A stretch of 4,159 bases of DNA from Escherichia coli. GTDB taxonomy: Bacteria; Pseudomonadota; Gammaproteobacteria; Enterobacterales; Enterobacteriaceae. The position numbers and the translations under genes are program-made. Position 1 is the stretch's first letter. Every line of letters starts with the position of its first letter. The stretch lies in the NCBI RefSeq assembly GCF_003334255.1, contig NZ_QOWU01000110.1; one strand, written 5' to 3'. Below, one piece after another: positions 2,963 to 3,026 of this stretch. The notes below the pieces were generated by a model that had not been told where the DNA came from, did no database searches, and saw nothing but the letters and a program-made list of their open reading frames with translations.

Positions 2963-3026
2963 GGCATTGCCTTTCGTTGAGGGTATGTTTATCTTTTATT
3001 CATTACCTTTTGGGGAGGGATGCTCT
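2963..3026 (+). promoter_or_regulatory. repA promoter/operator region and RBS (GGAGG at 3014..3018)
   Basis: GGAGG lies 8 nt upstream of ATG 3027. Candidate -35 TTGAGG (2977..2982) with a poor -10 about 17 bp downstream. There is a 9-bp palindrome ggcaTtgcc (2963..2971), and ttcattacc (2999..3007) resembles an inverted iteron end (revcomp of ggtaatatg), a possible autorepression site. Confidence 0.35.

Follow-up and report, generated by a model that had tools for sequence, protein, structure and literature searches.

Iteron plasmids have two classic brakes on their copy number, and autorepression of the initiator is one of them. The operators of F repE and pPS10 repA consist of a single inverted repeat each, not of two pairs. 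Plasmid initiators bind iterons as monomers, and their dimers bind efficiently where half of the iteron is present as an inverted repeat (PMC3401445). In pSC101, the RepA monomer is the initiator and the RepA dimer is the repressor of repA (PMC9637173). Dimers of pPS10 RepA on the operator repress repA (PMC4857107), and RepE dimers of F bind inverted repeats at repE and autoregulate the gene (PMC13028717). In both plasmids the inverted repeat bound by the repressing dimers is close to the rep promoter and has part of the iteron in common, and the iterons are bound by monomers (PMC13028717, PMC4857107, PMC3401445). A 2026 study of F doubts simple dimer-only repression, and proposes that monomers contribute and that sites of the operator region join iteron looping (PMC13028717). 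The present analysis concerns the region upstream of the initiator gene repA in a 4,159-nucleotide stretch of Escherichia coli DNA (contig NZ_QOWU01000110.1), referred to here as the window. Positions 2941-3010 are read, with a probability of about 0.75, as the autorepression operator of repA, composed of two inverted-repeat (IR) pairs of iteron half-sites (IR-1 and IR-2) and arranged as the double operator of pSC101.

The small MOBQ41 Rep_3 plasmids of enterobacteria have pIGWZ12 as their prototype, in which the origin lies 5' of rep and contains iterons, an A+T-rich region and DnaA boxes, and in which the iterons are the incompatibility determinants (PMC6856555). The window is a member of this pIGWZ12-like family of E. 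coli plasmids, and the same three kinds of element precede rep in both. A rep operator or autoregulation of rep is undescribed for the family in the accessible literature, outside which Zaleski 2006, 2012 and 2015 fall.

A leader of 87 base pairs (bp) lies between the DnaA-box-like element and the repA ATG, and it was scanned with a weight matrix derived from the heads of the window's four iterons. Four half-sites were located, IR-1 left, IR-1 right (A), IR-2 left (B) and IR-2 right (C), in the order + - + -, that is, as two pairs in which a direct head is followed by an inverted head (Table 1). The start spacing is 23 bp in IR-1, 22 bp in IR-2 and 37 bp from pair to pair. Two half-sites contain an iteron head in exact inverted form: C holds the reverse complement of the iteron 2 head AAAGGTAAT (2864-2872) as ATTACCTTT (3002-3010), and A holds that of the iteron 4 head AAAGGCAAT (2908-2916) as ATTGCCTTT (2966-2974). 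When the 87-bp leader was shuffled 20,000 times with dinucleotides preserved, at least two inverted 9-mers in common with the iteron array occurred in 0.00015 of the shuffles and at least one in 0.03. Exact copies of AAAGGYAAT number four in the whole plasmid, all inside 2864-3010; when up to one mismatch is allowed the count rises to 11, where 2.35 would be expected, and none of 200 shuffles reached 11. The tandem iterons (2843-2928) sit at the origin beside repA, and the arms of the half-sites copy one part of the iteron, the head, between the iterons and repA, as in operators of the Rep_3 kind. The first-pass annotation had pointed to TTCATTACC at 2999-3007 as an inverted iteron end; it is present, and is best read as the 3002-3010 copy. 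The same annotation had assembled its operator from a palindrome and this single half-site. Its inverted iteron sequence stands, but the operator is larger (about 2941-3010) and is made of two pairs.

As a positive control, pSC101 (NC_002056) was put through the same procedure. Its three iterons, AAAGGTCTAGCRGAATTTACAGA, and a CCCACA box are followed by half-sites at 5196(+), 5218(-), 5232(+) and 5254(-), with 22 bp in each pair and 36 bp from pair to pair, and these are the IR-1 and IR-2 of the literature. The longest exact match of the pSC101 half-sites to their own iterons is 7 nucleotides, as against two 9-mers in the window. The elements come in the same order in both plasmids, from a DnaA box and A+T-rich repeats through iterons whose head is AAAGGT and a box of the CCACA type to half-sites in the order + - + - and repA. 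Between its last iteron and the ATG, the window has the two successive direct-inverted pairs of the pSC101-type double operator, in which the half-sites of a pair are about two helical turns apart. The head alone is reused in the half-sites of both, and the spacings are nearly the same (23, 22 and 37 bp in the window versus 22, 22 and 36 bp in pSC101). In the alignment of the two regions the four half-sites fall on the four half-sites, with IR-1 left on AAAGGACTAGT and IR-2 left on TTGGTATAGT, and the predicted -35 lies at IR-1 right in both, CATTGCCT of the window being aligned on CATTGACT of pSC101. The RepA proteins (233 versus 316 amino acids) share 30% identity over 231 residues (E 3e-31).

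Several differences from pSC101 were also noted. In pSC101, IR-1 right and IR-2 left coincide with the promoter-like pair TTGACT-16-TATAGT. In the window, the predicted -35 and -10 are about 6 bp further downstream relative to the half-sites, and the -10 is past IR-2 left rather than within it. IR-2 right is separated from the ATG by 16 nucleotides in the window and by 8 in pSC101. The window has four iterons instead of three, and its additional direct head generates a tight 15-bp palindrome. The layout also recurs in a Shewanella plasmid (L077) with a RepA 41% identical to that of the window. There, a CCACAG box follows the last iteron and the half-site cores are GGTGATAC at 527(+), ATATCACC at 547(-), GGTGATAT at 564(+) and ATATCACC at 584(-), with TTGACA adjoining the second half-site and the ATG at 601. 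This plasmid also has a pair of GATC-bearing 19-mers (340-377) akin to the 13/14-mers of the window. F RepE and pPS10 RepA are WH1-WH2 initiators of the Rep_3 family like the RepA of the window, at a similarity lower than that of pSC101 RepA.

The origin-to-repA region was aligned with that of eight relatives from PLSDB and was also taken from 66 metagenome contigs. The sampled diversity comprises five or six iteron types, of which six were used in the matrix and permutation tests; the scan of the 66 contigs yielded many more copies and no iteron type beyond these. With heads GGYAAT, GGTGAK, GGTGGAG and GGTGAAC over the six types, matrices built from the iterons of each plasmid placed the best leader matches at about 0-4(+), 24(-), 38(+) and 60(-). 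IR-1 left was matched at offset 0-4 in all six types, A at 24(-) in five of six and C at 60(-) in four of six. At offset 38(+), B is the top match or a top match in RCS35, pEC8-7, pMB9029_3 and AGR6128, and is weak in the window. The bases after GG at these fixed offsets agree with the iterons of the same plasmid; in A they are CAAT, TGAG, TGGA, TGCA and TGGA, where the iterons have YAAT, TGAG, TGGA, TGAA and TGGA, respectively. Among 720 label permutations, the assignment of each leader to its own iterons gave the highest total, with 4 ties; fewer are impossible, as two pairs of types have identical heads. The half-sites would thus follow initiator specificity, co-varying with the iterons in the relatives. 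A matrix of exact k-mer coverage between leaders and iteron arrays was also tried and was dropped in favor of weight matrices and fixed offsets, as it was noisy owing to AAAGGT and TTTAAGGT being common to all types.

A built-in negative control for this co-variation is provided by a third inverted iteron-like match, ATCTAATTGCCTATA at 3034-3048 (3039-3047 with one mismatch), which falls in codons 3-7 of repA, 37 bp past C, and is 80% identical to the iteron head region. It was rejected as a half-site. The match encodes conserved I-A-Y codons and reads ATTGCCTA or ATAGCYTA in the relatives regardless of their iterons, and it is most likely a coding coincidence, because it stays constant while the iterons change.

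The best hexamer pair of the leader in a looser scan is TTGCCT-17-TATCTT (2967-2995). Site A overlaps the -35 of this predicted promoter, B lies in its spacer and C lies at about its start site. Homologous pairs are present in five relatives (Table 1). In all types the second base of the -10 (offsets 46-50) is A and its sixth is T, and an A-tract lies directly 5' of the -35 in all types, which would suit an UP element. The operator had earlier been drawn over both the promoter and the ribosome-binding site of repA; A and B do lie on the predicted promoter, but the Shine-Dalgarno sequence is merely adjacent. No Rfam match was found for the leader RNA, and the segment 2996-3040 folds no better than its shuffles (z = +1.24). 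In the promoter scan, the sole sigma-70-like match within 2500-3900 is TTGAGC-16-GATAAT on the minus strand inside repA (3540-3513), from which an antisense RNA could be transcribed in the direction of the leader.

By homology with pSC101, F and pPS10, RepA would bind these half-sites as a dimer and repress a promoter at the predicted position. Each half-site represents the iteron head only, that is, AAAGG and about four specificity bases of the 21-bp iteron. For initiation, RepA monomers would occupy the four whole iterons, whose tail would be contacted by WH1 and whose head by WH2. As RepA accumulates, dimers would form in which WH1 is taken up by dimerisation, and these could bind the paired heads through two WH2 domains. 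With dimers on IR-1 (IR-1 left with A) and on IR-2 (B with C), the predicted -35, spacer and start site, which the half-sites cover, would be blocked. RNA polymerase would be kept off or stalled by the bound RepA, and transcription of repA would drop as the RepA concentration goes up. Such negative feedback would buffer the initiator supply and hence the copy number. That this Rep_3 initiator represses itself through an inverted, iteron-related operator, as had been proposed, is supported by the Rep3_N and Rep3_C domains, the shuffles, the co-variation and the pSC101 layout.

Several observations weigh against this reading. IR-1 left (5.4 bits) and IR-2 left (3.6 bits) are degenerate in this plasmid. 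The promoter match is weak (8/12), and the promoter scan found none on the plus strand at its 9/12 threshold; the repA promoter stays a prediction, because it was seen only with the looser scan, below that threshold. In RCS35 and AGR6128 another hexamer pair, located upstream, outscores the homologous one, and with that pair the half-sites would fall at or shortly past the start site. The co-variation represents only about four independent head types, and gene conversion between repeats could, in principle, contribute to it. With AAAGGT common to the heads, only the positions after GG discriminate, and the cross-table of whole 11-mer matrices (sum of the top three matches) lacks a clean diagonal. 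The structural model of RepA, described below, is of low confidence (mean predicted local distance difference test score, pLDDT, 59.9), its best part being the WH2 region (about 70-80).

A reading partly compatible with the operator is that the half-sites bind RepA mainly for an origin role (titration, handcuffing or enhancement of initiation) and have little effect on the promoter. The IR-1 of pSC101 is reportedly a replication enhancer, and in the window IR-1 left and the extra direct head start just 3-22 bp past the DnaA-like box. The weakness of the predicted promoter also speaks for such a role, as do the doubts of the F study about dimer-only repression and its proposal that operator sites take part in iteron looping (PMC13028717). 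This reading is nevertheless unlikely, as the sole conserved promoter-like pair has its -35 under A, its spacer under B and its start site under C, and the equivalent sites repress in pSC101, F and pPS10.

The 9-bp palindrome GGCATTGCC (2963-2971) reported by the first-pass annotation is present and belongs to a longer one of 15 bp, AAAGGCAtTGCCTTT (2960-2974), with the inverted iteron 4 head ATTGCCTTT as its right arm, a link that had been missed. The extra direct head that forms the left arm looks like a local duplicate of IR-1 left, as an 18-bp direct repeat is present here (2930-2947 and 2948-2965) and the head lies in its second copy. This left arm occurs only in the window's own type and is missing from p33836-7, the closest other type, and from four other iteron types; at the palindrome position p33836-7 has AAATCATATTGCCTTT, and its A and B make another palindrome, CCTTTAccTAAAGG. 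The left arm is probably not a conserved partner of A. Palindromes with arms of at least 7 nucleotides were found in 63% of shuffled plasmids and in 4.4% of shuffled leaders, and the palindrome was rejected as an independent signal, being at chance level by itself and unconserved.

The palindrome could instead be an intrinsic terminator of leftward transcription that shields the origin from repA antisense RNA, its iteron likeness being incidental. The terminator scan detected a minus-strand stem-loop at 2975-2959 with 7 pairs, followed by the U-rich tail TTTTTATTTT, and the minus-strand RNA has a folding energy of -6.6 kcal/mol (z = -2.65); the region's sole promoter-like scan match, on the minus strand within repA, could supply the transcript. 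This explanation is very improbable. The energy is weak for a terminator, only 3 of the stem's pairs are G-C, its loop is 3 nucleotides long, and palindromes of this size are common by chance. The hairpin is not kept in p33836-7 and the four other types, where the left arm is absent and the equivalent stems are 4-5 bp with 9-nucleotide loops. A terminator would also leave the inverted head at 3002-3010, the conserved offsets and the co-variation with the iterons unexplained. It is just as improbable that the matches are decayed former iterons or chance likeness in A+T-rich DNA without present function, since the degeneracy of two of the four half-sites and the coding match at 3039-3047, which shows that such matches can come without function, are outweighed by the shuffle frequency of 0.00015, by half-sites that track their own iterons across types where the coding-region match does not, and by the recurrence of the + - + - spacing in pSC101 and the Shewanella plasmid at RepA identities of 30-41%.

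The nearest solved structures to RepA are F RepE (2z9o and 1rep; E about 1e-14), the WH1 domain of pPS10 RepA (1hkq; 1e-10) and the pi protein of R6K (2nra), all three being initiators known to repress themselves. Variation among seven RepA sequences is concentrated in residues 174-191, and two variable spots, residues 66-71 in WH1 and 174-191 in WH2, coincide with the two predicted recognition helices. An AlphaFold2 model made from the 7-sequence alignment was used solely to place helices. In this model a helix at 182-200 precedes a beta-hairpin wing and is the predicted recognition helix of the WH2 winged helix. RepA residues N186-Q187-Q188 are aligned to R205-R206-R207 of RepE, with residue 187 opposite R206. 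The identity of residue 187 (Q, R or K) goes with the iteron head, whatever the tail, and in the WH1 helix at 65-79 the four types with a TTTAAGGT tail have KNAEVQ and the two with a GGGGGT tail have [NQ]HAE... According to the RepE and pPS10 model, WH2 reads the iteron part shared with the operator and WH1 reads the other end. The pattern in this family, drawn from few lineages, fits a WH2 that reads the head common to iteron and operator and a WH1 that reads the tail. The RepA of RCS35 is nearer to that of pMB9029_3 in WH2 and nearer to that of the window in WH1, and these discordant domain-wise identities suggest shuffling of RepA domains.

A tentative extension of these observations is that the specificities of RepA, iterons and operator are matched within each lineage, so that this abundant family of about 4-kb E. 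coli and Salmonella plasmids would amount to a natural series of such sets. The head (GGYAAT, GGTGA or GGTGGAG, respectively) might be set by one or a few residues where the WH2 helix begins (187 Q, R or K and its neighbours), and the tail (TTTAAGGT or GGGGGT) independently by a few of the WH1 residues 66-71. Domains and half-sites would be reshuffled between lineages to give new, mutually compatible replicons, with the operator re-tuned each time, and mosaic arrays with a foreign iteron 3 would be snapshots of this process.

Table 1. Features of the origin-repA region of the window and corresponding features of its relatives
Feature	Plasmid	Position	Strand	Sequence	Remarks
DnaA box	Window	2735-2743	+	TTATCCACA	Perfect 9/9 match; left edge of origin
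Three A+T-rich 13/14-mers	Window	2757-2801	+	GTTTTTAGATCTT	Tandem repeat with GATC; conserved in relatives
Four iterons	Window	2843-2863, 2864-2884, 2887-2907, 2908-2928	+	Head AAAGGYAATATG, tail GATTTAAGGT	21-23 bp
DnaA-box-like element	Window	2930-2938	+	ATATTCACA	8/9 to TTATNCACA; abuts last iteron
IR-1 left	Window	2941-2951	+	AAAAGGGATAT	Degenerate direct head, 8/11; 5.4 bits; leader offset 1
Extra direct head	Window	2960-2968	+	AAAGGCATT	8/9; left palindrome arm; lineage-specific
IR-1 right (A)	Window	2964-2974	-	AAAGGCAATGC (reverse complement)	9.3 bits; offset 24(-)
Predicted -35	Window	2967-2972	+	TTGCCT	Inside A; A/T-rich tract upstream
IR-2 left (B)	Window	2978-2988	+	TGAGGGTATGT	Degenerate direct head; 3.6 bits; offset 38(+); in promoter spacer
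Predicted -10	Window	2990-2995	+	TATCTT	17 bp after -35
IR-2 right (C)	Window	3000-3010	-	AAAGGTAATGA (reverse complement)	8.9 bits; offset 60(-); about at predicted transcription start
Shine-Dalgarno sequence	Window	3014-3018	+	GGAGG	8 nucleotides before ATG; 4 nucleotides beyond C, no overlap
repA	Window	3027-3728	+		Rep_3 initiator, 233 amino acids; Pfam Rep3_N (WH1) 1.3e-35, Rep3_C (WH2) 9.7e-20
Homologous promoter-like pair	p33836-7			TTGCCT-17-TATATT	
Homologous promoter-like pair	RCS35			TTGCTC-17-TAGGTT	Preceded by TGA
Homologous promoter-like pair	pEC8-7			TCCACA-16-CACATT	
Homologous promoter-like pair	pMB9029_3			TTGCAC-17-TAGTTT	
Homologous promoter-like pair	AGR6128			TCCACC-16-TACAGT	
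Iteron type	Window, p33836-7			GGYAATATGATTTAAGGT	
Iteron type	RCS35_pI, pR21_4k, pLAO91			GGTGAKRT.ATTTAAGGT	
Iteron type	pEC8-7			GGTGGAGGAATTTAAGGT	
Iteron type	pMB9029_3			GGTGAACATTTCGGGGGT	
Iteron type	AGR6128, pEC648_4			GGTGGAGCTTTTGGGGGT	
RepA residue 187 = Q	Window, p33836-7			Head GGYAAT	Tail TTTAAGGT
RepA residue 187 = R	RCS35, pMB9029_3			Head GGTGA	Tails differ
RepA residue 187 = K	pEC8-7, AGR6128			Head GGTGGAG	Tails differ

Positions 1-77 of the window are identical to 4083-4159, and because of this recurrence the window represents a circular molecule, of 4082 bp. The replicon is 100% identical to E. coli plasmid CP077253.1 (MOBQ, rep_cluster_1778), in which the repA product is annotated as a replication initiation protein. 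Matches to the replicon in PLSDB comprise about 445 plasmids, most of them of 4.06-4.09 kb, assigned to MOBQ and rep_cluster_1778 and from E. coli (the main host), Salmonella and Shigella, which makes the family very common. The block around the DnaA box at 2735-2743 is unvarying in nine relatives and was the conserved anchor with which the 66 metagenome loci were retrieved; many of these contigs, which contain the same origin region, carry a human gut label. One of them, the 1079-bp contig L059, contains the DnaA box and 13-mer anchor followed by unrelated sequence without family iterons, and may be another replicon with the same origin module or a chimeric contig.

The A+T-rich 13/14-mers are likely the unwinding element of the origin. 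A GATC (AGATCT) is located within or beside each of them, reminiscent of the 13-mers of oriC, which implies sensitivity of the origin to Dam methylation and SeqA. In the DnaA-box-like element that follows the iterons, T[TC]CACAG is unvarying in all relatives, and pMB9029_3 has TTATCCACA at this place.

Iteron 3 (2887-2907) has a divergent head, GGTGGAGGA. The repeat, TTAGGTGGAGGAATTTAAGGT, carries a head of the pEC8-7 type, unlike the GGYAAT of its three neighbours. At the same position, metagenome relatives of the window type have either a regular GGTAATATG (L017, L019 and L040) or GGTGGGGGAAT (L011, L032 and L057). The iteron arrays of the pIGWZ12-like family are mosaics. Four other metagenome contigs (L020, L022, L027 and L068) contain one to three iterons instead of four, which may be true variation in iteron copy number or the collapse of repeats during assembly.

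Several elements were also observed downstream. A perfect 14-bp palindrome, TAAAATCGATTTTA (3726-3739), lies over the repA stop codon, and terminator-like hairpins on opposite strands, at 3748-3769 (+) and 3863-3845 (-), are located beyond it. Their arrangement fits two genes, repA and the relaxase gene, whose transcripts terminate convergently. In the non-coding DNA that separates repA from the relaxase gene's 3' end, 3.1 copies of a 10-bp tandem repeat, TCGAAGAACA, are present at 3917-3947.

The mechanism proposed for this operator is a textbook one, real but ordinary, and leaves the current mechanistic understanding unchanged. The double-operator design of pSC101 is common to replicons whose initiators are just 30-41% identical. 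Expression vectors have been derived from pIGWZ12, and the coordinates of the operator give the exact sites to mutate for copy-up vectors. The most useful by-product is the matched variation of protein, iterons and operator, which offers ready-made orthogonal initiator/operator pairs. For the plasmids themselves, the operator describes at base-pair resolution how members of the pIGWZ12-like family likely keep their supply of RepA steady.

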